A DNA stretch of 64,000 bases from Amphiscolops sp. MND2022. Taxonomy: Eukaryota. The translations under genes and the position numbers were made by a program. This document shows, piece after piece, positions 5,372-47,951 of the stretch. How positions within the stretch are numbered: the first letter of the stretch is position 1; the number at the start of each line of letters is the position of its first letter. Under the pieces are notes generated by a model. It ran no database searches. It was not told where the DNA came from and saw only the letters and a list, made by a program, of their open reading frames with translations. Where the stretch lies: the NCBI GenBank assembly GCA_964187785.1, contig OZ076409.1, forward strand, positions 29,638,001 through 29,702,000. The letters run 5' to 3'.

Positions 5372-6907
5372 TAGAAGTTTTTTTGGTCCTCTACGTCATC
5401 GTGTCGTTCCATTTCCTCAATATTGTTAATTTCGTCGTTGGTAGTGTGGGACAGCTCGTTGGTATTGTAGATAGCCCTGTATTGTAGACAGCCCTGTTGT
5501 TGGTCTGTCGAAAAGCCCTTCTGAACTGTTTGTTTTCTTCCGTTGACTGTTTAGGATACGGGACGTTTTGGTGGGCTGATGCGGTCGTATTTCTGTGATA
5601 ACAGTCTCGGGCTGAGTGTCCCACCTTGCCACAAAATTGACAAACGAGTTTTGAGATGTATTTAGAACTGTTTTCTTGGGCCTGGTTCGATTGGGTTGTC
5701 TGTTGTTGTTTCTGGTTTGTGGGTTTTGCCTGTGCTTCTTATCAGAGGCGTTTCTTACACTCCGCCTTTTTGTGCCCATGTATGACGCAGTGACGGCTTT
5801 GTCCATCCAACTTTCTCTTTGTTTCCCTGTTATGTTTGTGGATTGGGTATTTGACGTCTGAGGTGTGGCTGCATTTGGTTGGGGTGCACTCATTTGGTTG
5901 AATGGTTGCGCACCGACTGTGTTTGGGAGGAGTTGTGCATATTGACATCTACGTTGCACAAATGTCCGAATCTCTTCCATCGTGGTGTCATGTTTGCCCG
6001 ACATTGCCAGTTCGTTTTGCTTTTGAACGGGAAGTTTCGCGAAAAAAAATGTCTCTGTTATGTCGCTGGATTTGTCTCGAAATGCTTGTTTCGCTTCTTT
6101 TGAAAATTTGTTGAGGTAGTCGTTAAATGTCTCGGTCGAGGGATCATAGCGCATTTGGTCAATTTTGTATTTGGCCACTTCTTTCAGGTCCTCTTTGGCG
6201 CACTCTATTTTGAAGTAACGCAAGACTTGTGTTAGGGTCGTCTGATTCGTTATCTTCAATGACTGCAAAAATTCAATGGCAACATCGCGTAGCAGGCTTT
6301 GAAATTATGTCAGTTTCTGTTCTTCTGATAAGTTGTGTTGGTGTGGCCTGACATGGTTGAGCAGAAGGTGCTCAAATTCATTGTATTTTCCCCAATTTCC
6401 TCGGAAAAGTGGGACTTGCGTTTGTAGTATTTTCGGATGTTGTACTGTATCCGTCTTGGTATCCCTCAGGTGGTGGATTTCGGAGACGATGTTGTCAATT
6501 TGGTAGGCGGATGACTGAGGGTATTGCGATGTGGGTGGGCGCAATAGGTTCGTCTGCGGGCTGCTGGTTGATGCTCCTGTCACCATGTCGGAGCTGGTCT
6601 CATGTCCAATTGACACCTTGTTTAGTTCGTTCACTTCTCTATTGCTAGAGGAAATCTTTGCTGTTAGTACTAAAACTAAGTTCGTCAGTTCGGTAATTTG
6701 TTTGTTCATCTCGGAGAACCTTTGATTTACTGTACGTCGTTTAATCTCATTTCGATTATCTAGTAAGTCTCCATTATCAAATTCGTTCATCTGTTCTCTT
6801 GTTAGAACATCAGGCACACTGTCTTTGCTCTCTGCATAACTGTAACTATCTGTTCCGTTCATACTTGTTGGGTTATATTTAATTGCCTGAGATCTAGTAT
6901 TAACCAT
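5372..6907 (-). pseudogene. gag: gag of element B (premature stop and frameshifts)
   Basis: ORFs 6305-6907, 5426-6268 and 5391-5624 are homologous to element C gag, with zinc-knuckle remnants. Confidence 0.88.
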
Positions 6908-7908
6908 AAATTAAAACTACTGGAGTTTTATGAGGTTTTATTGGGTTATTGTAATAAATGGGTTCTGGTATTGGTATGATGAGGCTAGTTGTATACGAAT
7001 AAGATTGTGGTTAGCAACCGCACGTTATAACCGCAAATTCTACTGGTGGCACTCTCGTACCTGCTATTGAGTATGTCGATGTCGGACCACATCGGCGTGA
7101 CCACATCGACCAATCGCATTGCAGTATTATGGTGGTGTTAATTTGCACCTCGATTAGTAATTGCCCAATTTGAGTTTAAACTTGATACTGCACGGAAATA
7201 TAATGTGATGGTGTTACTATAGTTACATGACTCACTAATTGGTATATTCGTTTAGTATTGCAATGTGGCAATGTTGCCAACATCGTATGAGCAAATTATT
7301 AATATAGGCGTTGGTAACGAAGTTAACTGCATTAGAATGAAATCTGGTGATGGTTTGTCACCCACATTACGTGCTTAATCATATAATGTATCATATATAA
7401 TGTATCATGAAATTGATTTAAAAGGTACATGTAGAAAATGTATGATTATGGCTGAAAGAGAGAAAAGCTATTTGAAACCTAAATATAAATGATGCATCTG
7501 AAAGATTTGAGATTAAGTTTGATGATGTGGTTTGGTTAACTACAATCTTTTTCCTTCGTCTGTGCTCATGTACTGTTTGTTGATTTTATGTCTCGACTCT
7601 TGAATGTTGTGTAGTTAACCACTTCTCTGTTCAACATTCTCATGCATCAGGCATGACACAAGATAATATATTTCTCTTCTTTACTATCTATCAACTGATG
7701 TATATGTTTGTAACGTCAGGCAGTCGGTGAACGCAATTTTTGAAAATTTGGAACAAGTTATGCTCAACCTGGCAGGTACTTCCAATCAGTCTGGAAGACG
7801 TTAAAAAAGACAGACACCCCACCCCATCCCCGATAGCGAGAAAGAGTGCAGAAAAACCCCAAAAAAGGAACTCTAGACGTCGTCCGTGACAGAGTGCCGA
7901 AGAAGAAC

Positions 7909-12249: not shown

Positions 12250-12302
12250 TTTATTTTTTAATTAGACATTAAAACCGAAAGAGAGATGCAACGCTAGAGA
12301 AC
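12250..12302 (+). repeat. 53-bp target duplication, left copy (identical to 24634-24686)
   Basis: tttattttttaattagacattaaaaccgaaagagagatgcaacgctagagaac abuts both ends of element C. Confidence 0.95.
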
Positions 12303-14557
12303 AAATATTATGTCTTATGTACTTAGATATGGGCAATATGATGTCATATAATAAGGGCCATGGTTGTGAGCAACCCTACGTTACTTGTACCTTAATCCCC
12401 ATCCACCTTGAGTTTGAGCTATATATATATATATTTACTTAATACTGAGCGCTCTAGTTCCGGTGTCCGCATTCATGATCTTGCTATTAGCCTTAAATGT
12501 GTTACATTTCATAAATATTGGTTTGTCACGACAAGGGAGAGAAGTTTTCCGGTCAGACTGGACCGAGAGATGTAGAAACAATGAAAGCTGTAACTCCTAC
12601 TAGCTCCCCGCCTCAGGGCTTGTAGTCGTGACGAATTTCAGAAAAGTTCATCACTAATCCATCAGCGGACTTAGTGACCTTTCAGCTTGATTTACCAGTG
12701 AAATTACAGTGCTATTTTACCAAAGTTCATCGCAATCACATCGCCAAGATTGCGGGTGAACAAAAATTGGGACATTTATTTGATTTTATTTAATGATCCA
12801 TCAGCGGATCTCACGGGACTTTAAAATGCATGAAAACCATCCCATACTCATCGCCGTTTTGTGATTATTAACCTTCAATGTGCTTCTCATTTCCTAAAAG
12901 AGCATAACACATCTATATTTCATCGTCCTGACTAGTAACAATAAGAAATGAGAAAGTACATCCTTAATTCATCCTTAAAAAGAGTGAAGTAATGGATATC
13001 TGTTTTATTAGACTAATTCATCACTAGTTCATCGTAAAATTAGCTCGCACTACATTTGGCAGATTTATTACACAAGTTCATCACTAATTCATCGCTAGCT
13101 CAACTTGCGCTAGAATTAGTTGAATTTTCAGTTGAGTTCATCCTAAACTCATCATTGGAATTTGAACCATTAGATTTAGCTGTTTTATTGAATGTATTCA
13201 TCCTAAACTCATCGTACGTTTGTCTTCACTGTAGAATTAGCTGTTTCACCTGTTTTATCGACTGAATTCATCCTGAATTCATCGTCAATTTCACTAGTGC
13301 TGGAATTTAGCTATTTTCGAGGAGAGTTCATCCTTTTACCATCGTCGATTTAAATCGTGCTGGAAATCGTTCATTTTGAAGAGAGTTCATCCTTTTATCA
13401 TCGTCATTTTAAATAGTGTTGATTTTCGAGCGAGAAAGACTACGTTTCATCGCATATTCATCCCAGAGCTAAACAAGACTTGAAAATCAACAAATAAGGT
13501 CATGATTCATCACATATTCATCTTTGGTTTTATATGCATCGATTTACTGTCGTTTCTAGTTGGAAATCATCGTTTCTCCCATCCTGTGATATAATGTAAC
13601 TTGATCCAGTCTGAAATTAGTGTGATATCGATTACTTTTGATGCATTTTCGTTACTATAACAACCATTGTGTTATGTGCAGGCAATTGCGACATCTTGTA
13701 AACTAATGACTAATTATCATTTGCATATGTAGATTCATCATGGTGCTAGGCCATCTTGCGGCAGTTCACAACACCGGTCACGTGGCTTACCATCTTAGCA
13801 CCAACTACGGTAGCCAATGAGAAGAGGCTGGTAAGAGATTAGCGTCTTACCAGCCTGAAAAGACACGTGAACTGCTGTAATTAGGGCCGCCATTAGTAAT
13901 TACTCAGACCGAAATTGCGACAAGCTACCATCCAGTAGGATACCTCGCGTCGAATTTTACTCGAAAATACATCTCAGCTTCATCTTCAGAAACTATAATA
14001 CTGAAAACTGAGTAATTTCTTTTGATGCACTTACTGCTGCGATGAACATTGGATGAACTTTCCTATTCACCTTGCTAATTTCCTACTACCTTCCTTACGA
14101 CTTGCTTATTTATACTAATCATCGATAAAACATCTCTGTTCAAATTTAGTAAATTAGAGATTATAAAATCAAATAGAACAGCAAAAATACATCGCAATAA
14201 CATCTCAGATAATCCAGTCTTCACTCATAATCCTTTTCCCTCGTCTTTATGAATCCAGAACAAGGTACTGAACTCAGAAGTGGTAAAATTATTAGTTCCT
14301 CGTCTGAAACATCTATTCCAACTGATCCAGACATGGCCCAGTCGTCTGCCAATGACTCCGATAGCAACGAAACTTCAGATATCTCGTCTCAGTTGTCTGA
14401 AATAAGAGAAAGTTACGAAAGGAAAATAAACGAGTTACAAAATGAGTTTAGTCAACTGAAGGACTTAATGATGGCTGTTATAAGTAAGACAGACTGTGAA
14501 AATCGGCCATCAACTTCGAAAGGTCCTTCAAAGCCGGCCCACACAGTGGGTCCGACA
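12303..14557 (+). repeat. 5' LTR of element C (lacks the first 48 bp of the 3' LTR)
   Basis: Aligns to 22380-24633 with few differences; ends CCGACA. Confidence 0.96.
12647..13583 (+). repeat. Degenerate array of about 16 units (about 60 bp) with conserved core TTCATC-N5-TTCATC, in the 5' LTR
   Basis: Core starts at 12647, 12726, 12786, 12836, 12908, 12957, 13017, 13077, 13137, 13197, 13267, 13327, 13386, 13446, 13506 and 13566. Confidence 0.9.
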
Positions 14558-14570
14558 TGGTGACAGGAGT
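14558..14570 (+). promoter_or_regulatory. Primer binding site (probably tRNA-Leu)
   Basis: TGGTGACAGGAGT directly after the LTR-terminal CA; conserved in elements A, B and E; resembles the complement of tRNA-Leu 3' ends. Confidence 0.8.
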
Positions 14571-15746
14571 TACAGAAACCCGCTCCACCCGCCCGACAAC
14601 CAGCTTCACCAACTTCAGAAGATACCAAGAAGACGACTCAGACGAAGAGGGAGAATCAACCCCCAGAAGCAATGAGGAACGACTACTCAATGCAATCGAG
14701 ACGATCCCCCAACGGATCAAAAACACCACCACCAACACGAAGCTTCTGCAGACACACGTGCCAAATTTCAGAGGCCAAAAAGACAAATTCGTCGAATTTG
14801 AACACCTTCTCCTCAACCACCTCAGCCCGCTTGCCAACAAAATCACCGAGGAGAACAAACTACACTTCTTTCAAAGCCTTTTGAGAGATGACGCAATAGA
14901 ATACTGGCAATCCATCCAGATAACGCCAATGACAACACTAAAGGACGTACTCGACCTCTTCAGAAAAGAATTTGCAAAAGAGGATCTCAAGGAAGTGGCG
15001 CGTTACAAGTGGGACCAAGCACGTTATGATCCCACAACAGAAACATTCGGAGATTTCCTCAAAAATCTCAAGAAGACTGCCAAACAAGCCTTCGGCAATG
15101 AGGCCGACAAAGTAATCAAAATGTTCTTGTTTGGAAAACTACCAGTCGAGATTCAACAAGAGCTCACTATGGCAAACAAAGAAGAGAGCTCCCCAGAGGA
15201 AATCAAGACATACTTGATGAGAAAGTACCAGTACCAGCAGTACGTCGCGCCACCTACGGCAATCCAACCATTTAACGCGGTCACCTCCTCAGCCCCAGCA
15301 ACGATTACAACGACGAAGCCCACAACAACAACGACGACAACGCATCCCACGGAAAGAAAACGATTCGAAGGACAATGTTTCTACTGCGGAAAGACAGGCC
15401 ACCGCAAAACAGAATGTCGCGCCCGCCAACGTGACGAAGCAAACGGCATCAAAAAGGAAAATGCAATTCCGATGAAGAAAGTAACCGACCCAGACAAACC
15501 GAAGTACAATCCCAAGCTGGTTTGTCAAATTTGTGGATACACCGGCCACTCTGCAAGAGACTGCAGACGACGCATTCCCAAGGAAAGCAGCTCTGCATAT
15601 GGAAAGATTCCATACACAACGAATTCACAGGACGACAACAAGGCTAGACGACAAGATTCAAAACGACAACAAAAGCCGATGAATCCTATGCAAGCAGTTG
15701 CCGAAGAAGAAGACCAAGAAAGCTACTCTGATGAAGACATAAATCA

Positions 15747-15753
15747 GGGTTTT
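15747..15753 (+). promoter_or_regulatory. -1 ribosomal frameshift slippery heptamer G GGT TTT
   Basis: X XXY YYZ in the gag phase just before the gag stop; pol lies in the -1 frame. Confidence 0.85.
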
Positions 15754-18700
15754 TGATTCCGCCACGATTTCCGCCCGCTACCAACGACACGCGCGACAAA
15801 CGACTTACGACTCAACAACAGACTCACAACCGTCCAATGAAGAAATGGCAGCCTTCACTGGACAAACGACCAAAAGCTGACGACGTCTATCAGCGAAGAC
15901 TTTCCAATGATGAAAAAGCGATGGGAAATGCACGTCAACTCAACGGCAGCCGCTTTTCTCCACTCGCTGAAATCAACGATGAACAAACGATGAACTGGCA
16001 ACAAAACACCATGAGGCAGGTGGAAGATGCCAAAGAGATGGAAACCCACCATCTTGACGACGACTCGACTTCACACTCCACAATCGACAAACGGCTTAGT
16101 ATTAAAAAACATGCAAAACAGAGTAGTATTAACGTTTCAAAAACTAAAAAACATGCAACTAAAACAGAAATTCACGTTCTCAGTCCCACTTTACACTTAA
16201 ACAAGAAAGATAAAATGCTTTACGTCCCTCTTCAGTTTGACAAATATGAAAACAGCGCACTTTTAGATACAGGCGCAATTCAAAGCGCAATGTCTGAAGC
16301 GGAATTGCGAAAAATAACAACGGCTCATCCAGAAGCCATCCTTCATGAACTCCCCCCTCCGAATTTCAAAATTCAAATAGCAAACGGGAATTTAGTCCCA
16401 GTACGTAAGCAAGTCTTACTTAGATTTTACGTTGCTGGAAAAGTCTTTGAAGAAACGTTCCTAATCCTTCCAACAATGGGCACAATTTTAATTGGAATGT
16501 CATTCTTTGAAAAGTACTCAGTCAATTTAGACATAAAAAACCACCTTGTCCACTTCCCTAATCACATGATGTCCATGCAAGTTAGACAGCAAAAGAACAA
16601 CAGATTCAAAACTGGTTTAATTGATTTGTGTTCCAGCACCAGAACAGTGATCCCTCCTCTCCATCAAGTGATGATACAGGTCCACAGTGACGCGGACATC
16701 TCACTTACAACTGGTACAGTTGAGGGCTCACCTGGATTCATGCGAAAGACGTGTTTGCTTGTTTCTCCAGCTTTGGTTGACCTAGACGAGGGCAAGACGA
16801 CAATCCAGGTCACCAACCCGAACAACCACACGTTCACACTTGATGCCAACACCACTCTGGCACACTTTCGCATACCGACACCACATCAGGCGGCAAACAT
16901 CACCCCCATGCCAGTCGAACACTTGAACCTGATCACCAAGTACCCAGATGAGGCGGAAGCAGTGATCAACCAACTGTTCGTGAACCCTGAAATGAAGTCA
17001 ACTAAGTGGTACCCAACTCCCGAGACGTGCAGTGAGCCAGACAAACTCAACGCAATTGAGCGACGAATCTATGATGAGATTCTGGCACTACGAGAGCTCG
17101 AGAAGCTTGACCCGTCCCAATCTGATGAACAACGGATGAACTTCCTGAAGAACTTCAACTGGGACGACTCGCATCTTACTCCGTCTCAACGGTTACAGGT
17201 AGAGGAGTTGCTGGTAAAGTACAACTCCATTTTTGCTAGACACCGTTTTGATATTGGCATGAACACTGATTTTAAAGTTAAGTTAACACCTCAACATGAA
17301 GAACCTGTTTATTCACAAAGTCTCCCGACTCCGACAAATTTGAAGGACGATTTGCTCGTGGAGTTAGCTTTAATGCAAGAGTACGGGATCATAACTACTT
17401 TGCCTCATAGCAAATACTCTTCCCCGATATTTGCCCAACGTAAACCTAATGGTAAATTGAGGATTTTAGTTGACTTGAGAAGAATAAACCATCTGATCAA
17501 AAACGATTACGGTGAACACAACCATCCCGTAACAACAATTGCTGACGCTGCCCAACACATGACCGGGAAAAAGTATTTCTGTAAACTTGATTGTTCCCAG
17601 GCCTACCATTGCATTCCAATGGCCGATGAGCAGTCTGTCCAACTGTTATCATTTAATTTTGGTTCTAGAACTTTTGCCTTTTTACGCCTAGCCCAAAGTC
17701 TTAACCGTTCTTTGTCAGCATTCACAAGTGTAGTCCGTGAGTATTTGGACCCCTTGGTCAAAGCGGACCGATGTGCTCAATATGTTGATGACATTGGAAT
17801 TGCAGCACACACCCCTGACGAACTGATTAATAACCTTGAACTTGTTTTTCAGCAGTTGAACAAAGCTGGTCTCAAACTTAGCATGAGTAAATGTGAATTT
17901 GGACAAAAACAAATTGAGTACTTGGGAAAAACCATTTCTAGCACCGGTATTGCTCCCATTGAGAAACGAGTAACTGACTATCTAACCAAGTTGAAACCCC
18001 CCAATTCAGTGAAAGCGTTGCAACGTTATCTTGGTTTTGTAAACTTTTACAGGTCTTATATTCCCCGACTAGCTGATAAAACTTGTTGTTTACAGGAATT
18101 GATCAAGAAGGACGTCCCTTTCAAACTGAATCAACAACATAAAGACGCTATTTTTGAAATCAATGAAAGTTTGTTAAGAGCAACAAAAGTGTCTCTGAAA
18201 TTGCCATTACCTGATAAACAATTGGTAATCATGTGTGACGCCAGCGAACACGCTGCCGGCTATGTTTTGTTAATTGAGGATTATGCTGACCCGTCAGTCA
18301 AACAAACATACGCCCCTGTTGCATTTGGCTCTAAAAAATTTCAGGGCGGCCAGATGTCTCTAACAATGTATGCCAAAGAGTTTTTAGCTATGCACTTTGC
18401 CTTCGATGAATTTGGCCACATTTTGTGGGGTGCGAAAAAACCCATCATTGTTATGACTGACAATAAGGCCTTGACTAGATTTTTCCAGGCGAAGCATATC
18501 CCGCCTTCACTTTGGAATTTTTGCGATCAAACCCTTCAGTTCAATTTTTTATTAGCACATGTTCCAGGAGTTGAAAATCCCGCAGCTGACTACTTATCTC
18601 GGCTTGAGATTAGACCTGAAGACCGTGTACATTTAAAATTGACTGATACTATTCCAATTCACAGGATCGAGATCGACATCGCCTCCCGTACACCAAAACA

Positions 18701-19604
18701 GGAGGAAGACGAGCCTGATTACTTTCCCACGAGCGAACCACTCAGATGCAAACGCCAGAAGGATGTCAAAGAGATGAAATTGGCAAATGGCACTGACGTG
18801 GCTCATGACGATGGGAAAGGGATGAAGTTCACCAACTGTGAGAGAACAGCGACCTCAGATGACTTCGCGACTGACAACCATCTGACGTACCGCCTCACAG
18901 ACGTGGACGAGCCGATTCAACTCTCGCAATTCATCCGTAAAGTATCATTATCACACCCGGTAATGAGTCAGGTTAGCCCCGCCGAGGGGATCGATCTAAT
19001 TCAGGTCCAGAAAAATAACTGGGTTATTCAAAAAATGATTAGATTTTTAGAAGGTACTGAAATTTTGCAACACCCAGTTATAATGCAAGATCAGTTTTTT
19101 CAAAAGTTGTACAAAAATCGAAAACGCCTACAAGTTGTAAACGGTGTCTTGTACAGACAGTTTTTTGATCACACGGGACTAGAGTCTCACAAGCAGTTAG
19201 TCGTTCCTGAAGACTGTATTTTGAAAATAATTAGGACTCTACATAACAGCCCGGTACAAGGACACCCTGGTTTAAAGAAAATGTTGTACGAACTTCGTAA
19301 AAGATATTACTCTCCTAACTTAGCCTGTAAAGTTCAAAAAGTCCTTGACGGATGTGAAAACTGCATGAAATCTAAAAGTGTAAAAGAAACGCAACTACGT
19401 CCACCGTTACAAAAAATCTACGACCCGTGCGACGGACCAGAAGACCTGTTAGAAATAGACATCGTTGGTCCACTCCCGGCGTCGAACGGTTTTACACACA
19501 TTCTGATAGCTAGAATGAAAGACAAAAGAGAAAACGCCATATTTAGGACTTTTGACGATGAGAAAATGATGAAAAGAGAAAAACCGCAGAAAACTAAAAA
19601 ATGA
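15753..19604 (+). CDS. pol: Pol polyprotein (aspartic protease, RT, RNase H, integrase N-terminus; IN catalytic core lost after about 19510)
   Basis: LLDTGA, YVDD, MCDASE, HNSPVQGHPG...CENC, EIDIVGPLP, then an unrelated Lys-rich tail. Confidence 0.95.
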   Translation: MIPPRFPPATNDTRDKRLTTQQQTHNRPMKKWQPSLDKRPKADDVYQRRLSNDEKAMGNARQLNGSRFSPLAEINDEQTMNWQQNTMRQVEDAKEMETHHLDDDSTSHSTIDKRLSIKKHAKQSSINVSKTKKHATKTEIHVLSPTLHLNKKDKMLYVPLQFDKYENSALLDTGAIQSAMSEAELRKITTAHPEAILHELPPPNFKIQIANGNLVPVRKQVLLRFYVAGKVFEETFLILPTMGTILIGMSFFEKYSVNLDIKNHLVHFPNHMMSMQVRQQKNNRFKTGLIDLCSSTRTVIPPLHQVMIQVHSDADISLTTGTVEGSPGFMRKTCLLVSPALVDLDEGKTTIQVTNPNNHTFTLDANTTLAHFRIPTPHQAANITPMPVEHLNLITKYPDEAEAVINQLFVNPEMKSTKWYPTPETCSEPDKLNAIERRIYDEILALRELEKLDPSQSDEQRMNFLKNFNWDDSHLTPSQRLQVEELLVKYNSIFARHRFDIGMNTDFKVKLTPQHEEPVYSQSLPTPTNLKDDLLVELALMQEYGIITTLPHSKYSSPIFAQRKPNGKLRILVDLRRINHLIKNDYGEHNHPVTTIADAAQHMTGKKYFCKLDCSQAYHCIPMADEQSVQLLSFNFGSRTFAFLRLAQSLNRSLSAFTSVVREYLDPLVKADRCAQYVDDIGIAAHTPDELINNLELVFQQLNKAGLKLSMSKCEFGQKQIEYLGKTISSTGIAPIEKRVTDYLTKLKPPNSVKALQRYLGFVNFYRSYIPRLADKTCCLQELIKKDVPFKLNQQHKDAIFEINESLLRATKVSLKLPLPDKQLVIMCDASEHAAGYVLLIEDYADPSVKQTYAPVAFGSKKFQGGQMSLTMYAKEFLAMHFAFDEFGHILWGAKKPIIVMTDNKALTRFFQAKHIPPSLWNFCDQTLQFNFLLAHVPGVENPAADYLSRLEIRPEDRVHLKLTDTIPIHRIEIDIASRTPKQEEDEPDYFPTSEPLRCKRQKDVKEMKLANGTDVAHDDGKGMKFTNCERTATSDDFATDNHLTYRLTDVDEPIQLSQFIRKVSLSHPVMSQVSPAEGIDLIQVQKNNWVIQKMIRFLEGTEILQHPVIMQDQFFQKLYKNRKRLQVVNGVLYRQFFDHTGLESHKQLVVPEDCILKIIRTLHNSPVQGHPGLKKMLYELRKRYYSPNLACKVQKVLDGCENCMKSKSVKETQLRPPLQKIYDPCDGPEDLLEIDIVGPLPASNGFTHILIARMKDKRENAIFRTFDDEKMMKREKPQKTKK

Positions 19605-19692
19605 AAACAAAAAACGACGGCAAATAGATAAAAAAGGAGAAAAGCGCGAAAATGCTAGTGGAAGCGGAAATGAAAAAGGTAAAAACGGAAAG

Positions 19693-21188
19693 TTACTGAT
19701 CAAATACTTCACAGGTTTTAAAGCTGTTTAGGTAACCTGGTAGACGAGACGCGATTGGCTCATCATCGGAGTCAATGAGGCTGGGCCCCAACGGTGAGGT
19801 CTCTCCTAATCCAATGTCTGGTGCAGGAACAACGTCGCCAGGATCAGGACCAACAGACGGAAAACCACTGAAGGAGAAGTCCTCGGGAATCTCAACCCCT
19901 GTCATAGTGCCACTGGCCGAAGGAAGATCGGGCTGGTCAACGACTGGCTCCACCATCGAAAGGACGTCAGCGGTCAACGAGGAAGCAAAGGGAGGAGACT
20001 CGACAGGAGGATCGTGCACGGTGGAGGAATCAATGGTCTCCACAACAGCCTGCACTGCTACGTCAGCAGAATTGCACACTGTATTGATGGCCACATCCAC
20101 TTGCTGCACCTCATCCCTCGTTGAGGTACCATGGCACACAGTCACCCGAGGAGGAGGACTTCTGGCAGCGAATTCACCATCCAAGTATCTCTGTAAGTTG
20201 GGCGACAACACGGAGACTGGAGCCCTTGCGACCGGAGAACTGGCGGCATTCACTGCGAGATCCTGTAAGAAGGAAGACAGCTCAAGCTGAGGAGGCCCTC
20301 CTTGGGTACTGACGTCGACGCTGTCATTGCCGAAGTCACTGGTCCCAATCGCAATGGAGTAAGTGATGGGACGCGGTCTCGGTGCGTGAATTGGCGTTGG
20401 GCCTGAAAGAAGAAAACAGAAATCAGACGACGACGAACGGAGAAGAAAGAGCGCGTACGTCGCGCGAAGAAAGAAGTCTGGAGCAGAATTTACCCATGAC
20501 CCATCTTCAAAAAATGAAATTCGCAGCGAGTCAATCAGAAAAGGCTGCGAATGTTCATGACACATCCTAAATTCATCTTAAAAATGAATTACATGGGTAA
20601 TCGACCGCAAAGGACACTACATGCAGATGCGATGTTTACATCGGAATCACATCGGAGTGTTCGGACGATCGCCTAGAGGAATGAAAAAGGAAATTGACAA
20701 ACTCACTGAACTGCTGGATGCTGTCCCGCAGCATGTCCCACATGTGGCGGTCATACCACCCGAAGGTGATGCTGCCGAGAGAGGCATACCAAGGGTAGTG
20801 ATCTGAAACACCGTACGAAAAGGAGTCAGCTACTGGACGAAGTGAGGATGAGATATGAGGAATTCGAAGACTGAACTGAAGAGTGGAAGGATAGTACTTA
20901 CACTGCGGCAGATACGGGACATTGACAGGTTGACCGACCTGCAACTCAGGGTCAACCTGCGGCTCAGCGGCTACCGGCTGAACAACAGGAACTTCTTGGG
21001 GTGGCACAGTTTGCAGTGTCGTGAGTTCTGACACGATGCCGACAGAGTGGACTGAGTCAGCTAAAGCAAGGGTGCGTCCTAAGTAATTGATTGTCCCTAA
21101 CCCCTTTGTGAAGAAAAGAAAAAATAGTGCACTTACTTTCTGTGGCCTCGGTCTCAGGTAACGAATGAACTGAATGAATATCAGACAT
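19693..21188 (-). CDS. Predicted spliced antisense accessory protein, 448 aa; exons 21188-21137, 21060-20640, 20566-19693
   Basis: GT-AG introns 21136-21061 (GTAAGT...CTTTAG, 76 nt) and 20639-20567 (GTAAAC...ATTTAG, 73 nt) join an ATG exon and two track ORFs in frame (52+421+874=1347 nt). Confidence 0.75.
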
Positions 21189-21689
21189 CTCGCACTCGAA
21201 GAAGAAATTGCAGCAACAATCTGAAAAGAATGGAAGAAGGTGAAAGAAGGAAAGAAATCGAAGAATCCAGGAACAGAGAATTTGATCAGTAATTAAATGG
21301 CCTGATCAACCATGATTACGGAAGAACAAATTCAATAGAAGATTTCAAAGAGCGCGACGCAGCTTGAATGCCATGGTAATCAAATACTTGAATTCAGAAG
21401 ATGAAAAATCGATGAAAAACTCTCCGATTTCAAATACTGACACCACTCTTCTTCCCAGTACAGCCAACTCAAGCTTTCTCTGAAAATGGATCGTCCTCTC
21501 CTAGGACTTGACAAAAAACTTCAAGTATTTGATTTGTTGACAGCTGCCAGTCTCAGATCAATACCGACGAAGTTGAGCGGAAACGCGCAAAGGAAATCGT
21601 GGCGATTTTCAAACCGACTTGAATGGAGGATGATTTATGGATGAGAATGCTGCTGACAACCGGTTGTAACTTCCTTCAGTTATAAATTC

Positions 21690-21830
21690 AGTCTCAGCCA
21701 ATCAGATCGAGCAACAGTTGCTATGACGACGAATTCATCTCTTTCTCATCGCTCAGAAGTCGAGCAGCGGAAGTAGCTTCGACGGTTACTATGGCAACGA
21801 CTCATTCCTTTCTCATCACGGAAGCTGATA
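21690..21830 (-). promoter_or_regulatory. Candidate promoter/enhancer of the antisense gene: CCAAT, two RFX X-box-like sites, CGGAAG
   Basis: CCAAT at 21698; GTTGCTATGACGAC 21717-21730; GTTACTATGGCAAC 21785-21798; the two sites lie in a diverged duplication of about 68 bp. Confidence 0.45.
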
Positions 21831-22331
21831 GCAAAGCAACGGCACCAGTCGTCTGCTAAATCAACATCGATGTCTCGCTGTGTAAACAATTCATCGTTCA
21901 TTCATCCCCGACTCGTTGCCAATTTGTCCATAAAGCTAATCGAATTGTTTATTCAGTGTAGGCGTTTTGGAGAGAAACTTTTCTCCGAGAAATCAGTTTC
22001 TACCGAAAATACCCAGCCGAAACTCCCATCAAAAGCATGACAACCAATAAAATGCAGATCAGCGGACATTCGATGGACCAAGAATTAGAGTTGCCGCGTC
22101 GAAAATTTTAACCGAAATCACCCAGGATGATGCCAGAAAAGACGATTACCGAAGGTCCTCTTCTCAGAGAAGCTCTCACAGGACAGAACAAACGAAGGAC
22201 ATGCCAATTCAGAACTAACGAAGGACATTTTCTCCCCAACCAAACGAAGGACCAGTCGAAGCCAACGCCGAGACAACCATCCTCTGCACATTTGGCCCCT
22301 GCACTCTCAGTCCAAATCCCGCCCCGGGGAG

Positions 22332-24633
22332 TGTCATGCCAGCATGATGGAAATATAATCTACTAAATATCTGTAATGTAAATATTATGTCTTATGTACT
22401 TAGATATGGGCAATATGATGTCATATAACAAGGGCCATGGTTGTGAGCAACCCTACGTTACTTGTACCTTAATCCCCATCCCCCTTGAGTTTGAGCTATA
22501 TATATATATTTACTTAATATTGAGCGCTCTAGTTCCGGTGTCCGCATTCATGATCTTGCTATTAGCCTTAAATGTGTTACATTTCATAAATATTGGTTTG
22601 TCACGACAAGGGAGAGAAGTTTTCCGGTCAGACTGGACCGAGAGATGTAGAAACAATGAAAGCTGTAACTCCTACTAGCTCCCCGCCTCAGGGCTTGTAG
22701 TCGTGACGAATTTCAGAAAAGTTCATCACTAATCCATCAGCGGACTTAGTGACCTTTCAGCTTGATTTACCAGTGAAATTACAGTGCTATTTTACCAAAG
22801 TTCATCGCAATCACATCGCCAAGATTGCGGGTGAACAAAAATTGGGACATTTATTTGATTTTATTTAATGATCCATCAGCGGATCTCACGGGACTTTAAA
22901 ATGCATGAAAACCATCCCATACTCTTCGCCGTTTTGTGATTATTAACCTTCAATGTGCTTCTCATTTCCTAAAAGAGCATAACACATCTATATTTCATCG
23001 TCCTGACTAGTAACAATAAGAAATGAGAAAGTACATCCTTAATTCATCCTAAAAAAGAGTGAAGTGCTGGATATCTGTTTTATTAGACTAATTCATCACT
23101 AGTTCATCGTAAAATTAGCTCGCACTACATTTGGCAGATTTATTACACAAGTTCATCACTAATTCATCGCTAGCTCAACTTGCGCTAGAATTAGTTGAAT
23201 TTTCAGTTGAGTTCATCCTAAACTCATCATTGGAATTTGAACCATTAGATTTAGCTGTTTTATTGAATGTATTCATCCTAAACTCATCGTACGTTTGTCT
23301 TCACTGTAGAATTAGCTGTTTCACCTGTTTTATCGACTGAATTCATCCTGAATTCATCGTCAATTTCACTAGTGCTGGAATTTAGCTATTTTCGAGGAGA
23401 GTTCATCCTTTTACCATCGTCGATTTAAATCGTGCTGGAAATCGTTCATTTTGAAGAGAGTTCATCCTTTTATCATCGTCATTTTAAATAGTGTTGATTT
23501 TCGAGCGAGAAAGACTACATTTCATCGCAAATTCATCCCACAGCTAAACAAGACTTGAAAATCAACAAATAAGGTCATGATTCATCACATATTCATCTTT
23601 GGTTTTATATGCATCGATTTACTGTCGTTTCTAGTTGGAAATCATCGTTTCTCCCATCCTGTGATATAATATAACTTGATCCAGTCTGAAATTAGTGTGA
23701 TATCGATTACTTTTGATGCATTTTCGTTACTATAACAACCATTGTGTTATGTGCAGGCAATTGCGACATCTTGTAAACTAATGACTAATTATCATTTGCA
23801 TATGTAGATTCATCATGGTGCTAGGCCATCTTGCGGCAGTTCACAACACCGGTCACGTGGCTTACCATCTTAGCACCAACTACGGTAGCCAATGAGAAGA
23901 GGCTGGTAAGAGATTAGCGTCTTACCAGCCTGAAAAGACACGTGAACTGCTGTAATTAGGGCCGCCATTAGTAATTACTCAGACCGAAATTGCGACAAGC
24001 TACCATCCAGTAGGATACCTCGCGTCGAATTTTACTCGAAAATACATCTCAGCTTCATCTTCAGAAACTATAATACTGAAAACTGAGTAATTTCTTTTGA
24101 TGCACTTACTGCTGCGATGAACATTGGATGAACTTTCCTATTCACCTTGCTAATTTCCTACTACCTTCCTTACGACTTGCTTATTTATACTAATCATCGA
24201 TAAAACATCTCTGTTCAAATTTAGTAAATTAGAGATTATAAAATCAAATAGAACAGCAAAAATACATCGCAATAACATCTCAGATAATCCAGTCTTCACT
24301 CATAATCCTTTTCCCTCGTCTATATGAATCCAGAACAAGGTACTGAACTCAGAAGTGGTAAATTTATTAGTTCCTCGTCTGAAACATCTATTCCAACTGA
24401 TCCAGACATGGCCCAGTCGTCTGCCAATGACTCCGATAGCAACGAAACTTCAGATATCTCGTCTCAGTTGTCTGAAATAAGAGAAAGTTACGAAAGGAAA
24501 ATAAACGAGTTACAAAATGAGTTTAGTCAACTGAAGGACTTAATGATGGCTGTTATAAGTAAGACAGACAGTGAAAATCGGCCATCAACTTCGAAAGGTC
24601 CTTCAAAGCCGGCCCACACAGTAGGGTCCGACA
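22332..24633 (+). repeat. 3' LTR of element C (2302 bp, TGTC...GACA)
   Basis: Starts TGTCATGCC like the LTRs of A, B and E; contains a copy of the motif array and the Gag N-terminal ORF 24324-24656. Confidence 0.96.
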
Positions 24634-24686
24634 TTTATTTTTTAATTAGACATTAAAACCGAAAGAGAGATGCAACGCTAGAGAAC
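24634..24686 (+). repeat. 53-bp target duplication, right copy
   Basis: Identical to 12250-12302. Confidence 0.95.
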
Positions 24687-28014: not shown

Positions 28015-30446
28015 AAAATTTCTTTGAGTATTTTAACATCTGACTGACAGTACGACACAGGTTCTTGTTGAAAGTCGTAAACGAACTTATTAACTTTATA
28101 AAGCTGGGTCTGTGCTGAGTGCCATTCCAAAAACGTGCTCACCGTTTGCTGTCCTCTCATCGAATTCAAAGCAAAAAGGCACGCGGGTGGAAATTGGCCT
28201 TCTTTGAGAGCAAACTCTTGGCATTCTTCTCTTGGTCATTTCCTGCATTGAAGCAGCTAACATTGCTTTGTGTAGCTACACAGTGATTGCAGTCGTTGGA
28301 AACAATCTTGCGCGGATTGCAGTTTTCCCCTTTCTCGCATGTTTGTAAACTATGCAGCTTTGAAGTAGCGGCGGGATAGAGGGCCTCTTTAGATGTCAAA
28401 AAATGAGGAAAGTATCCTTTTTTCAATTCTTTGAGATTGAACGTTGTGGGAAATTTTGATAAAGGTTTCGGCATGAAAAGATAAGAGTCAATGAATCGTT
28501 TATTCCCCACACGCATTGACACAACCTTGTTACCTCTGAGCAAAATTTTGGGAACATATTTGTGTTGTTTGTAGAGCCATTCCAGGATTGGTAGGAAATC
28601 GAACCCACTGCCAAAATGGGCAATAAACCATTCAGTTTGACGAACCTTTTCAACACTAGCAAAAACATCCTCACAAAAATCGTTTATACAATCGTAGCCA
28701 CAGTAAATAACTTCATCACCTGTCCAAGACTCTGCTGCCAGTAGAATTGGTTTATGTAGCCCTTCATTGCCACAACTCTGGTCAGTTTCTAAGTCAAAAA
28801 CCCAAATTTTGTCATCCGAGGGAGCTCGTGCAAAGTTGTTTGCTGGCTGGTCACGGGATGTAACAGTACCATCGTCATTGACTGGAGCGTTGCTCATTTT
28901 CCTGCGTTTGATTTGCGTCATCGGATCTTCTTTCTCAACTTCTTCACGATAATTCTCTCCGCCCAATAATTCACAGTCAGGAAATTCGTTACTGGTATCA
29001 CCATCCGGTTTTTCTCGCTCTATACATCTCTTCGGTTTTCGTACAAAACATTGATGTTCCGATGAAGGCGAAGAGGTGTTTTTACGGTGTGACAATGAGT
29101 AATGAACGGAGCATGTAGAACAGCGTTTTTTTGAGCAAATTTGATTGGAGAATGCTCGCTTAGGTACAGCATTGTCGCATGTAGGGCACAAAGTGTACAA
29201 ATGACACACCCCAGAGGTAACATGGCAATCCAGACACTTTTGGCTTCGTACCTTTAGCCTGCATCTATCACACTGGAAAACCGGTGACTGGCGAGGGGTC
29301 TTTGACAAGTCATTGGACGAAGTAGTTCAATTGAGCAGCGAAAGGTTGATGAAACCGGTCCTATTGAGACAGCCAGGCTGCCGACACAGCAAACAACCAC
29401 TGACAGAGCATAAATGCTTCACTGTGGAAAAGGCCTTGTGACAACTGTAACAGTAGTGGCAAGCATCGAATAGTCCTTTCATTGAGGTAACTAAATCTAC
29501 ATGTCTGTTTTGAGCATCATACAAAAGGTCGATATTCTGCTGTGCTTACTGATTATAACATTTAAGGAAAGTGCCCATAAAGTTGCTATCGTAAACAGAT
29601 AAACAAAAGTCTTTCAACACTTGCGACTGAGACAAAAATGCTAAATCTTGTAGAGCAAGAGGTTTACCAGCAGCAGGAGAGGTTTGAGCTGTCTGATAGT
29701 GATGCAACCCAGTAGAGGAGTCGTCAAAGGCAGAGGTGGGAAGTCTTTTCGAGGAAGCACCACAAGCCAAAATTGTCTGCAATTCGTCTTGGGGGATGCT
29801 TGGATCAGATTTCAGAAGGGTTATCAAATGCTGCATTTCACGCGTTTGCACGGAAGCCCGATCCAGGTGCAAGTTTTTTTTGTCGTTTTTCTTTTATTAG
29901 GCGGCCGGGGAGATCGCTCCTTAACTTTGATGCCAATTGCTATGGCCCGCAAAAGACAATCGTTCTGGTCACTTTTGATTACAATTATTGACTTCTTTTG
30001 TTTCGTGAAGAGCTTGATATCGGGAACAGTCCTGCTCTGTATGCCTCCAAGCCGGTTCCCGCCCATTGTTGGTAGAGAAACACTCAAAACGTTGACTTTG
30101 ATATTGTTGCTAATATCAAATGACTCGTTGGAATTAACGACCCTGTCAATTTCATCGAGAATCAGTTCGGCGTTGAAATCCGCTACGGACGAGAATGGGA
30201 TATGAATAGGATAGTTGAGGGTAGGCGCATTCAGTACCAATCGAATTCTGTGTGAATGACCAGGAAGATCTTGCTGTATCTCAGATATCAATTTGTTGAT
30301 GAGGTGGTTGAAAATCTCTTTAATTCGATCCAGCACACTTTCAATGTCCGTGAAGTACACTTCATAGTCTCTGCTGGCCGCTCGCAACAGACTCTGCTTT
30401 GTGACATTCGATTTACCCTATAGTACTGCTCAGGATTAAACCCCAT
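28015..30446 (-). pseudogene. Protein-primed family B DNA polymerase, N-terminal and exonuclease part; frameshifted and truncated
   Basis: VFDLET (ExoI), FIAHFGSGFD (ExoII), RFIDSYLFMP..LSKFP.TF.L..KGYFPHF, YCQSDVKIL (ExoIII, near 28040); upstream KKSIIVI...CLLRAI and Cys-rich segments. Confidence 0.88.
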
Positions 30447-30811
30447 GGCATAATCTGCAACAAACGCAATGCAACAAGAATTAAACATGTCACAGAAGCA
30501 ATTAAAACTACTGTAAGATTGATGAAGATTCCAAATAGTAAAAAAAAACAAAATCAACAACATAAATTATATAAAGAAGGTATTTATATAAATGGTCCGG
30601 AAATCAACTTGTATACGCAACACGTCACAGAGGGGTTAGTCTGATGAGTATAAATGAGAACCGAAGTATTGTATGAAAAAATGCCTATTTAGAAGCCAAT
30701 AAGTGAAACGTATTGAGAAGTTGGCCAAAATTTAAAAAAAATGTCAAACTTAACACACGCGCAAGAAAAAACAAACACATGTACAACAAAACATCGAGCT
30801 TTAAGAGACGT

Positions 30812-31528
30812 TTAGTTCATGAAAACTTCATCCTCATCATCCTCAGTGGTGGCTATGTTCGTACCAGTCTCACCGTTGAACATAACAAAATCTCGTTTCT
30901 CAAACAATTTCTGGTTTTCAACGTCGGCCTCGATTGTTATGTTCTCATTGTCGCCATTGGTCAAACAGTCGTCCGTGACATTTTGGGCCCGCTTCTTCGA
31001 TGTGGTTGTGGTTGACCCGACTTTCGCGCCATTAACCTTGGAAAAACCTTTCTTGCCAGTAGGCTTCTTTCCAAAAGTTGAGATTGACGTAGGTTCTCGG
31101 AACCCACCCGTCAGAGCTTCCTCCATCGCTCTCTTGAACTCCTGCGTCGTCGCAGATTTCACCCCTGATGATTCCAATGCCGCCTTGTCACCTAGACCAA
31201 GCAAAGCAACAAACGCAGTCAGCTCTTCAACAGTGAACGAAAAGTGACACTGCCGCTGCAACTGGCCGCTTTGAAAATCGGGTTTGAATAGTCGCAGCCC
31301 GATGTAAGTCGCGGTTGACATCTCCGAAGAGAGGTTGTTTGGGTAGCACTTCACTCCGATTCTAACCCAGCGATTATGCGACTTGGCAATGTCCCACCAT
31401 TTGTCGTGGCTGGACTCGTCTTGCTCCCGTGAGATTCGCCAGGGGGACACAACAGATTTTGCATCGTTTCCAACAATACCCAGAGTCTTCTGGGAGCGCT
31501 TACGTACAACACTGTTCAACCAATTCAT
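30812..31528 (-). CDS. Hypothetical 238-aa protein, possibly PC4/Whirly-like ssDNA binder with acidic tail
   Basis: Intact ORF; beta-rich WDIAK..RWVRIGV...YIGLRLF...FSFTVEEL pattern; C-terminus EDDEDEVF; upstream splice-acceptor and TATA-like signals. Confidence 0.55.
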   Translation of the reverse strand: MNWLNSVVRKRSQKTLGIVGNDAKSVVSPWRISREQDESSHDKWWDIAKSHNRWVRIGVKCYPNNLSSEMSTATYIGLRLFKPDFQSGQLQRQCHFSFTVEELTAFVALLGLGDKAALESSGVKSATTQEFKRAMEEALTGGFREPTSISTFGKKPTGKKGFSKVNGAKVGSTTTTSKKRAQNVTDDCLTNGDNENITIEADVENQKLFEKRDFVMFNGETGTNIATTEDDEDEVFMN

Positions 31529-31953
31529 CTTTTTTCGTCAAAACAACGAGACTCTGAAACGGAAAGAGTACTGTGAATCTGAACTCTCAAGAATGTAGTA
31601 AAACATGTAATCAGCGACTTTAACAAAAAAAACTGAACTGTGATTTGAAGGGAGAAAACGTTTTGAGACGCAACGAATACATATATAGTTTGCTGCGTTT
31701 CAGACAGGATGGGAGAATCAATTTCAAGACTCCAACTGTTTTATGTCTTCTGCCAAAAAACTTCTAGACTGTATAGGTGGCAAAATCCAAAAAAACAGTA
31801 CCGATTACAAACATTTTATTGATGAAGACTGATTCTTTCTCACTCCTTGAAAACAATACATTGAATTTTAAGCACTTTTAGGACAATTCAACGCTTCAAA
31901 AAACATGTTACAACAAGAAAGAACTGCTATCCAGCGCAACGTTTAATTACAAT

Positions 31954-33060
31954 TTACAGAGCTTGCGATTGCTTTCTGGTAATTCTATGGGCTTCCAAGA
32001 GAGACTTCCGGGAAACCATCAGGGGATGATGTTCATCAGTGACCGTTGAACCTTTTGAACAATTCTGAAAAAAGAACTTTTTCACCAGATGTTCAACATA
32101 TTCGTTGGGCCATTGACAGCTAAACAAATCGTCGGCCTGCTCTTGATACATATTCAACAGACACTCTGGCACAAGACTTGACAAGGTTTTTGGCTGATTA
32201 AAAACCTCTAATATCATCAATGATTCCGTGGTTTTGGTGAAGTAAATTCTAATCTCATCAGCGAGGTCACTTTGGAAACAGATTGTCTGCAAAAGTAATT
32301 GGTCGTTGAGGCCAAATCGCAGCACACCCTGCTCAAAATCGACAAGGAGAAGAAATTCGAATATATTCTCTTCGTTATTGCTATTGAGCCAAATGGTCTC
32401 CAGTTTCTCTAGGCAGTCGTATGGCAAGAAAATGAGAGTATCGTTTTCAACCAACTGCATTTCTCCAAGATCCCAGTAAAATTTAATAGGGAACCCGTCG
32501 TTGACGGATTCTACCGGCAGGCTGCTCAGACCAATAATGAAGCGTGTTTCCCCGACCAGCAAAGATGGGAAATCATTGATCTTCGCGAATACCTTGAAGA
32601 CCCTGACGGCTACATTGCCATTGAGGTTGTTGAAAATTATATCAGGAACTGCGACATCATGATTGAAGATCCCATCGTCACTCCAATCATCGTCCGAATC
32701 CGAATCGCCGGCGGGGAATTTTTTTTCAATTGCATCGTAGTCAATACCAAGGACCAGATTGTCGAATGGTCGCTTGTAGTGATAGTCCATTACCTCGTAT
32801 TTTTTCCATTTTATTAGCTTCACGTCCGTGTTCGATCCGAGAAATCCTCGGTAAACGTGATTGACGTCCATGTCAATTGATTGACCGGGAGAAAAAACTT
32901 TGCTGTAGTCTTTCACTATAGCGCTGTAACCAAGGAAAATATTTGTGAACTGCTCGACGTACGGCGTGAGGACCACAACGTTGAGACTTGACCGTCGACC
33001 TTTCCGAAAATAGTCGTATAGAAGTTGAAAAGCGTCCCGCTGCTTTCGGAACTGCATCTC
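31954..33060 (-). CDS. Hypothetical protein of at least 367 aa, probably the last exon of a spliced gene
   Basis: Long intact ORF preceded by tttctgtttgtttag|GAG ATG; AATAAA downstream near 31815. Confidence 0.6.
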   Translation of the reverse strand, partial: EMQFRKQRDAFQLLYDYFRKGRRSSLNVVVLTPYVEQFTNIFLGYSAIVKDYSKVFSPGQSIDMDVNHVYRGFLGSNTDVKLIKWKKYEVMDYHYKRPFDNLVLGIDYDAIEKKFPAGDSDSDDDWSDDGIFNHDVAVPDIIFNNLNGNVAVRVFKVFAKINDFPSLLVGETRFIIGLSSLPVESVNDGFPIKFYWDLGEMQLVENDTLIFLPYDCLEKLETIWLNSNNEENIFEFLLLVDFEQGVLRFGLNDQLLLQTICFQSDLADEIRIYFTKTTESLMILEVFNQPKTLSSLVPECLLNMYQEQADDLFSCQWPNEYVEHLVKKFFFQNCSKGSTVTDEHHPLMVSRKSLLEAHRITRKQSQAL

Positions 33061-34195: not shown

Positions 34196-34358
34196 CCCAT
34201 GTATCTGGTAAAGTCCCTCCCTCAGGACAAGGGGTCTGGCAGATACACAATGTATCTGCCCCTTTCGCCCTACAGATTCCTTGGGGTGAAAAGGGCAGAT
34301 ACATTGTGTATCTGCCAGACCCCTTGTCCCGAGGGAGGGTCTTTACCAGATACATGGG
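34196..34358. repeat. Near-perfect palindrome (foldback element)
   Basis: cccatgtatctggtaaag...ctttaccagatacatggg, arms of about 75 bp. Confidence 0.9.
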
Positions 34359-36131: not shown

Positions 36132-36348
36132 AGAACGCCCAAATCCCCAAAAGTGCCGGGGAGAGTGCTGGGAAGAGTGCCGGGAAAAAGGGGACTGCTG
36201 GGGGGACTGCTGGGAGCAGTGCTGGGAGGCCGGTTTCTTTGGAAAAGCAGAGAAACGGCACTGCTCCCAGCAGTCCCCCAGCAGTCCCCTTTTTCCCGGG
36301 CACTCTTCCCAGCACTCTCCCCGGCACTTTTGGGGATTTGGGCGTTCT
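36132..36348. repeat. Near-perfect palindrome (foldback/MITE)
   Basis: agaacgcccaaatccccaaaagtgccgggg...ccccggcacttttggggatttgggcgttct. Confidence 0.9.
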
Positions 36349-41789: not shown

Positions 41790-44700
41790 ATTCGTAGGGA
41801 CCCGAATGATACTGGAGCGTACGAATTCATTGGGCCGTCGTTTGTTTCGGTATAATCTTCTATCAAGAGGACATAACCGGCTGCGTGTTCACTGGCATCG
41901 CACATTATAACGAGTTGTTTATCAGGTGATGGCAGTCGTAGTGAAAGCTTTGCGGCTTTTGCGAGGGTTTCATTGATTTCGAAGATCAGGTCCTTGTGTT
42001 GTTGGGTCAATTGGAACTTGATGTCTTTCTGGAGCAGCTTGTACAACGTTTTGAGTTTTTCCGCCAGGCGTGGTATGTACTGCTTGTAGACTTGAACAAA
42101 TCTGATGTATCGCTGTAATGAATTGACGGATGTTGGAGTCTTCGTTGTCTTCAGGAACTTGTCGATTTTGTCTTCAATTGGTGCAACGCCCTTTGAGGTA
42201 ATGCTCCTTCCGAGGAAGTCGATTTGCGGGTGTCCGAACGCACACTTGGACATCGACAGTTTGAGACCTGCTTTCTGGATTTGTTGGAAGACAGCTTCGA
42301 TGTTTGATAGTAACTCTTCGACGTTGTGTGCAGCAATGCCAATGTCATCTACGTACTGCGCACATTTGTCGGCCTTTACAAGGGCATCTACATATTCTCG
42401 AACTGTGCTGTTGAATGCCGAGAGGGATCGGTTGAGTCCATGTGCCAGCCGTAGATAGGCGAAGGTTCGGCTTCCGAAGTTGAATGCCAGTTGTTGTACC
42501 GATTGTTCGTTTGCCGTCTGTAGACAATGGTACGCCTGCGAGCAATCCATCTTGCAAAGTACTTCTTTCCTGCCATGTGTTGAGCGGCGTCGGCGATGGT
42601 TGTGACTGGATGATTTTGTTGGTTGTAATCTTTTTTCAGTAGGTGGTTGATTCGGCGCAGGTCTACCAGGATGCGAAGTTCCCATTGGGTTTGCGCTGGG
42701 CAAAAATGGGTGAAGACTACTTGCTGTACGGTAACGTCGTGATGATACCGTATTCTTGCATCAAGGCCAGTTCGATGAGAAAGTCGTATTTAAGGTTTGT
42801 GGGTGTTGGAAGGCTCTGAGCATAAACTGGGTCATCATGCTTCGGCGTGAGTTTGATCTTGAAATCAGTATTGACGCCTATGTCAAGGCGGTGTCGGGCG
42901 AACACAATGTTGTACTTCACTAGGAGGTTCTCTATTTGTTGTTGCTCTTGTTCAGTCAAAATTGAGTTTTCACATTGGAAGTTGTCAAGGAAGGCCTTGC
43001 GTTGTTGGTCGTCTGCTGTTGGGTCTAATTTTTCTTCCTCACGAAGTTTGGTGATTTCGTCGTATATCCGTTTTCAATACGGTTCAGCTTCGACGGGTCA
43101 TCACTTGTCTCCGGTGTGGGGTACCAACGACGATCAGTGTTTGTGTCTGGTTCTTGGAACAGTTGGTTCAGGACATTAGTGGCTTCATCTGGATATTTAG
43201 TTATGAGCGTGAGTTGCTCATTGGACATTGGTTGCAACTTTTTTGCCTGATTGGGAGTCATTTTCCTGAATGTAGCCACTGTCGTGTTCGGGTTGAGCAT
43301 AATTGTGTGACTAGTTAGGTTGGTAATTTGGACGTGATTCTTCATTTCGGCTATTTGCGCCAGGGCTGGGGACACCAGTAGTTGTGTCTTTCTTTCGAAC
43401 GCAGGAAAGGTCTCCACTGTGCCCTGGATTGTGCCGAGGTCCCTTTCCGATAGGACAGGGACGATGAGTTGGTGGTCTGGTTGTATCACTGTCATCTGGG
43501 TAGTCCGCAGTTCGATCATTTGGATTTTGTATCGCCCTCGTTCTGGTTTGAGTTGTAATGTAATGTTCGGAAATTTGACTACATTGTTGGTGAGGTCAAG
43601 TGTCACTGAGTACTTCTCTAAAAAGAACATGCCAATCAAGATGTTACCCATGGTGGGGAGGATCATGAAGGTCTCTTCGAATACGTTGCCCCCAATGAAG
43701 ACGCGAAGAAGTACCTGTTTCGGACCGGGACAATGCTCCCGTTTGCAATTTGGACTTTGAAATCCGGGGCTGGGTATTCTTCCAGAAGTGCTGCAGGGTG
43801 GGCTGAGAGGATTCGTCTGAACTGGTTCGCTCGGCGCTTCTTTTGTTTGGACAGCCTGGTTGAATGGTTGGAGGAGTTGTTGATTTGGTAATAGTTGAGC
43901 GTATTGCCATCTTCTCTGTACAAATGTTTTTATTTCTTCGATACTGGCGTCATGTTTACCAGCAATTGCCAACTCGTTCTGGAGCTGAATGGGTAATTTG
44001 GCAAAAAGGAATGTTTTGACAGTTTCCTGTGCCTTGTCTCCGTAAGCTTGTTCAGCTACTTTCTTGTTATTTGCGAGAAAAGTGCTGAATGACTCTGTGG
44101 TTGGGTCGTATCGGAGTTGATCAAATTTGAATTTTGAGACTTCTGTGAGCTCCTCTTTTGCGTACTCTTTCTTGAAGGCCGCAAGTATATCTTTCAGAGT
44201 GGTTTCCGTTGTGACGGTCAGAATTTGCCAGAATTCAATGGCGTCGTCTCTCAGAAGACTCTGGAAATAATTAAGTTTCTGCTCTTCTGTCAGTTTGTGG
44301 GCATGCGGCCGCAGATGATTGAGTAGTAGATGCTCAAACTCGTTGTACTTTTCTCTGACCCCTATGAACAACGGGACTTGAGTTTGAAAAAATTTTGGTT
44401 GTGTCGCCCATGGAGTTGCGTTGGTGATGGATTACTGTCATCACATCGGTCAATTGTGGGGCGCAAGCGTCATCATTTCTGGGTGTCCCGTTCGGTGGAG
44501 TTGTTCGTGAACCCGTTGGTTGTGAGTTCGGGACTCCTGTCACCATGTCGGAACGACTGTTAGCATTGGTAGTTACAGTGTTAAGTACGTTCCCTTCTCT
44601 AGGATTAGAGGGTATCTGTTTGATAAGGGCTAAGACTAGGTCAGTAAGTTCTCCGATTTGTCTATTCATCTCATTAAATCGGCGGTCAATCACATTCGTT

Positions 44701-47950: not shown

Positions 47951-47951
47951 T

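Follow-up and report, generated by a model that had tools for sequence, protein, structure and literature searches.

The window analysed here, a 64,000-nt stretch of the Amphiscolops sp. MND2022 genome (contig OZ076409.1, forward-strand positions 29,638,001 to 29,702,000) to whose position 1 all window coordinates refer, contains an LTR (long terminal repeat) retrotransposon of the Ty3/Gypsy type with a spliced gene located between pol and the 3' LTR and antisense to pol. In intact copies elsewhere in the genome this gene has seven coding exons and encodes about 1,083 amino acids (aa), whereas the copy in the window is a deletion derivative with a 3'-truncated gene, of which exons 1 to 3 are left. 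The protein likely descends from a hAT transposase stripped of its cutting residues, and the reading that we prefer, with a probability of about 0.5, is that it binds the CATC-N7-CATC repeats of its own element, probably as a dimer, and keeps its own family transcribed.

Structure and maintenance of the antisense gene

A first-pass annotation of the window had placed the gene correctly in position and orientation and had joined three minus-strand exons (21188-21137, 21060-20640, and 20566-19693; 52, 421, and 874 nt) into a product of 448 aa. The ATG at 21188 and two gaps with GT-AG ends, one of 76 nt and the other of 73 nt, are present in the window and the join is open there, but its second intron and its stop did not withstand the comparison of copies. 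For that comparison, a DNA search of the 1.07-Gb genome gave 760 candidates, 40 of which were scored and 30 loci fetched. The ATG, exon 1 (21137-21188; 52 nt counted from the ATG), intron 1 (21061-21136; 76 nt, GTAAGT...CTTTAG), and, upstream of them, an acceptor at 21221 were all kept across the copies; the 448-aa join, by contrast, was open in only 6 of the 30 loci, most copies having 1-nt insertions or deletions inside the second and third exons as originally drawn. Both ends of the 73-nt intron are themselves copies of CATC-N7-CATC (20563-20577 and 20639-20653), which coincidence accounts for their apparent conservation.

A single revised intron 2, running from 20706 to 20403 on the minus strand (304 nt, GTGAGT...TTTCAG, with the acceptor TTTTCTTCTTTCAG), absorbs those insertions and deletions. 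Its GT and its AG were each found in 30 of 30 loci at a length of 301-304 nt, and with it exons 1-3 are open in 26 loci, the remaining four being disrupted by frameshifts, by a stop, or by loss of the ATG. The third-position substitution pattern and the protein homology both start exactly past 20403, and the homology to database proteins—ORF calls (open reading frames) that most probably stem from a same-species assembly—spans GPTPIHAPRPRP to ASRLPG, which residues mark the borders of the revised exon 3 (19737-20402; 666 nt, acidic and Ser/Pro-rich). The stop at 19693 falls inside intron 3, whose donor (CAG/GTTACC, phase 1) lies at 19736 and whose 5' part occupies 19507-19736 in the window; the aromatic globular core attributed to the shorter protein is mostly intron, with about 77 of its residues coming from intron 2. 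That the three-exon protein is the true product, as its open frame in the window and in five near-identical or recombinant copies might suggest, is almost certainly wrong in view of a join closed in 24 of the 30 loci, weak splice sites that are motif copies, and a stop within intron 3.

In the intact copies, intron 3 measures about 640-690 nt and is followed by four further exons. We spliced four copies in silico, and in each of them every one of the six junctions is GT-AG and keeps the phase; three gave products of 1,083-1,085 aa, the fourth having a frameshift in exon 7. The window copy diverges from all 29 other loci at 19506-19556, and the five loci that were fully read go on into more exons. 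Relative to two intact copies, about 7.1 kb is gone at the junction 19506-19507, including the integrase core and antisense exons 4-7, with an overlap of 1 nt.

To estimate selection, we calculated the ratio of nonsynonymous to synonymous substitution (dN/dS) by the Nei-Gojobori method, excluding pairs with a proportion of synonymous differences (pS) below 0.03. The values of 0.16-0.30 for exon 2 (20707-21060; 354 nt) and 0.17-0.27 for exon 3 indicate purifying selection. This excess of dS over dN, together with in-phase GT-AG junctions across divergent copies, bears out the earlier proposal of a maintained, spliced antisense accessory gene; the conservation of splice sites and frame then named as a check holds for intron 1 and the revised intron 2, but not for the 73-nt join. 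The earlier exclusion of env was likewise sound, the gene being antisense, acidic at its N-terminus, and devoid of env-like features as read directly, without a dedicated predictor. Reverse transcription has sense RNA as its template, so that introns of the minus strand persist, an argument that the first-pass annotation had rightly made. A minus-strand transcript, likely starting from a promoter in the 3' LTR, would be spliced, while the genomic RNA, being of the opposite strand, would retain the introns.

The nearest known layout is found in plant Gypsy elements, whose additional antisense ORFs (Retand TRP28/PF04195, maize Grande gene23, and rice RIRE2; PMC11963269, PMC7264820) also lie between pol and the 3' LTR. 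They share with the present gene position, orientation, family-wide retention, and a proposed nuclear DNA-binding regulatory role. The Amphiscolops gene, however, has six introns, a feature unmentioned in the main text of either paper, along with a BED/hAT-like ancestry and a candidate target motif; and domain searches found no PF04195 match in its protein, which is accordingly not of the Retand TRP28 type. Our literature searches brought up no LTR element with a spliced antisense gene that derives from a transposase.

The encoded protein and its exchangeable cassette

The first-pass annotation had left the function as unknown; the half of the protein missing from the window is, in the intact copies, hAT-like with a BED-like finger. 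From the N-terminus, the intact protein consists of an acidic, disordered third (357 aa; 13% D+E, 4% K+R), a BED-like zinc finger, and a body resembling hAT transposases. The CxxC...H...H arrangement of the finger is conserved, with profile hits that were weak but consistent and below the Pfam cut-off. In alignments A6 and A8 we found no invariant Asp at the predicted strand ends and no CxxH, these positions having been placed by a general hAT pattern. Individually weak, these pieces of support converge on descent from a hAT transposase. As in hAT transposases such as Hermes (PMC10368747), the finger appears to be followed by helical, beta-sheet, and helical regions, over about 720 aa; the acidic 357-aa N-terminus is an addition relative to hAT transposases, and no conserved DDE is present. 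A 564-aa protein (P0249) has three tandem fingers of the exon-4 type.

As the genome is rich in hAT elements, with at least 150 matches, one might take the gene for a passively carried, nested or decaying hAT transposon, or for an active transposase. That explanation is already largely refuted and very improbable: the strand positions lack a conserved Asp, no terminal inverted repeats were shared among the five longest pairs per locus in four loci, the coding sequence is under purifying selection, and position and orientation are constant across distant lineages. The host-domesticated BED proteins, such as the ZBED family, DREF, and DAYSLEEPER, resemble the Amphiscolops protein in the likely loss of catalysis, but here the keeper is a retrotransposon rather than the host. 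Captured chromatin domains are reported as extra domains kept by animal LTR elements, in arthropod Copia with an MBD and in the rotifer ORF3s, although those domains differ from the one described here.

Exons 4-7 travel as one block of at least ten types, independently of the LTR type and of the 5' exon type, in 20 elements, half of which were picked for a divergent exon 7. For these exons the proportion of nonsynonymous differences was 0.14-0.44 and pS 0.64-0.88, mostly saturated, whereas the dS of the reverse transcriptase (RT) was 0.03-0.27 among six elements, partly the same ones. Exons 4-7 are a cassette swapped between near-identical pol backbones. In 10 of 10 further elements exons 2-7 were antisense to pol.

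A profile search of 1.84 billion proteins gave 92 hits, and two remote ones yielded 6,419 and 3,779 first-look candidates in the Amphiscolops genome. Ten remote-type loci were fetched: nine stood antisense to a pol of no more than 35-67% identity, and the tenth antisense to gag alone; the exon 4/5 intron occupied the same position and phase wherever both its ends were readable (6 of 10). Relatives may exist in other species, because three remote hits sit on short contigs of other assemblies. One locus (L201:5530-9851) has two adjoining antisense homologues, of which the second is highly divergent and bears an acidic N-terminal stretch of 520 residues; the two probably belong to nested elements of two lineages.

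The CATC-N7-CATC motif and the possible role of the protein

The window has 50 sites of the direct repeat CATC-N7-CATC where 2.1 would be expected, with no more than 6 in any of 100 shuffles, and 49 of those sites fall within the element. There, CATC pairs with spacers of 4, 5, 6, or 9 never occur and those with a spacer of 8 occur twice; control loci had one CATC-N7-CATC site in 185,782 bp. Both strands carry sites, which are spread over the LTRs, pol, the introns, and the 3' region, in 215 distinct contexts among 12 loci, the density being highest in the LTR array. All of 20 family members had 25-49 sites per 10-kb stretch regardless of cassette type, a family-specific, high-density motif of the VANC/TnpA kind.

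The motif changes together with the finger. For the helix ahead of the first zinc histidine, whose counterpart in Hermes enters the major groove (PMC10368747), 18 copies of the CATC lineage could be read, and 17 of them have SRGITTF.EH. In all six members of a sister lineage the helix is SRG(A/P)AEF.RH, and these elements have no CATC pair but 8-13 CGTY-N7-CGTC sites. An unbiased scan for direct 4-mer repeats, from which distances divisible by 3 were omitted, ranked distance 11 at the top in each lineage (CATC, 329 against 10.3 expected; CGTC, 43 against 4.9). CATG and ACGT gave weaker signals and, as palindromes, were counted twice; repeats of 5 and 11 bp were present in the control set as well, a tandem array being their probable source.

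We consider dimeric binding to the 11-bp repeat somewhat more probable than the contrary: each of two BED fingers would recognise one CATC half-site, the two half-sites being separated by one helical turn. Activating or anti-silencing machinery would be recruited by the N-terminal third, which is acidic and disordered, and an activator or anti-silencer, rather than a repressor or a factor acting on complementary DNA (cDNA), seems to us an even bet overall. As the protein would act in trans, deleted copies that retain the motif, such as that in the window, would remain targets. BED fingers bind short repeats, and VANC and TnpA regulate their own elements via arrayed motifs (PMC5735166, PMC10368747, bioRxiv 10.64898/2026.08.24.746577). 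Like VANC of VANDAL and TnpA of Spm, the Amphiscolops protein is element-encoded, separate from the mobility enzyme, and paired with a short, dense, family-specific motif; TnpA also shares the transposase descent (same sources). Binding and anti-silencing have been demonstrated for those two and are only inferred here. Moreover, those are plant DNA transposons regulating themselves, whereas here an LTR retrotransposon has probably taken over the gene of a DNA transposon.

The same protein and site could alternatively serve as a self-limiting repressor or insulator, the coating of LTRs, introns, and pol linkers damping genomic transcription or separating sense from antisense. Sites all along the element in both orientations, seven of them in pol, suit coating over a promoter switch, and HBZ, a retroviral antisense protein, is reportedly repressive. 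Nevertheless, the motif is densest in the LTR array, the composition of the N-terminal third resembles that of activators, and the gene is retained in young, expanding copies, so that we hold this possibility to be unlikely, even though HBZ and other antisense proteins of retroviruses have regulatory roles (PMC11963269). Slightly less probable again is an action on the cDNA or at integration, by which the protein would bind the motif on new double-stranded cDNA to protect or import it, or would pair the ends and steer target choice. Transposase ancestry fits end binding and oligomerisation (PMC10368747), nuclear import has been discussed for the plant antisense ORFs (PMC7264820), and the motif would be functional only as double-stranded DNA in both orientations; yet its sites are not clustered at the element tips, and it is not evident how an antisense product spliced on its own would enter particles.

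The persistence of at least ten old cassette types despite a constant helix and motif is left unexplained by self-targeting. These types, saturated at synonymous sites on backbones of low RT divergence, would instead suit a host transcription factor binding the motif, with the antisense protein being, for example, a decoy or antagonist of host silencing and an arms race keeping the cassettes divergent. The sister-lineage motif contains TGACGT, which we take to be a common host-factor core. But nothing in the cassette is as constant as the zinc ligands and recognition helix of the finger, and these vary in step with the motif, so that we regard this explanation, too, as rather improbable.

Returning to self-targeting, a broader formulation, which we put forward tentatively at somewhat less than even odds, is that a DNA transposase was domesticated by an LTR retrotransposon clade, which it would serve as a sequence-specific transcription or anti-silencing factor with a co-evolved lineage operator, present even in pol: a VANC-like lock-and-key that spans transposon classes and has exchangeable effector cassettes. 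For the antisense accessory genes of LTR elements neither a function nor a target has so far been known, and the Amphiscolops gene pairs a readable DNA-binding domain with a candidate operator, which varies along with the recognition helix, making the target directly testable. If the proposal is true, a retrotransposon turned the enzyme of another class into its own regulator, and sequence-specific anti-silencing reaches beyond plant DNA transposons.

The host element and the remainder of the window

The assignment to Ty3/Gypsy follows from the LTRs, gag, and a pol with the order protease, RT, RNase H, and integrase, as found in the window copy and an intact copy; the pol of the latter carries rve and p58-C, whereas that of the former lacks the integrase core. 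On the plus strand, the 5' LTR (12303-14557; 18 motif sites) lacks the first 48 bp of the 3' LTR, to which it is 99.2% identical. The 3' LTR (22332-24633, TGT...ACA) holds 17 sites, mostly at intervals of about 60 bp. The gag (14333-15756), with two CCHC knuckles and, in the window copy, a frameshift near the 5' LTR end, starts inside the LTR, where about 75 of its codons lie (14333-14557; counterpart 24408-24633), and runs through the primer-binding site; this arrangement occurs also in the other Gypsy relics of the window (6305-6910 and 44334-44906). The pol (15735-19506; protease, RT, RNase H, and integrase zinc domain) has seven motif sites in its coding sequence; between 15909 and 18824, six minus-strand sites are encoded as Asp-x-x-x-Met-like codons in linker regions. 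Intron 2 of the antisense gene contains two sites, and the region upstream of its ATG (21189-22331) contains four, together with the acceptor of a candidate 5' untranslated-region intron at 21221 and a polypurine tract adjoining the LTR. A flanking 53-bp host duplication (12250-12302, second copy 24634-24686), together with the incomplete 5' LTR, suggests an aberrant one-ended insertion rather than the usual short target duplication. One further copy (L078) bears an internal tandem duplication covering most of pol.

Elsewhere in the window, 28166-33060 (minus strand) includes part of a type B DNA polymerase (PF03175, E 1.2e-7) together with several unassigned ORFs and is probably what is left of a Polinton-like element; a locus (L080) has similar ORFs, which by eye are ATPase, integrase, and capsid-like. 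A 3.75-kb tandem duplication (98.6%) at 44200-51712 contains the LTR-gag start of a Gypsy element as well as a fragment of a non-LTR RT, and two long imperfect palindromes lie at 36132-36348 (88% over 220 nt) and 34196-34358 (91% over 163 nt).
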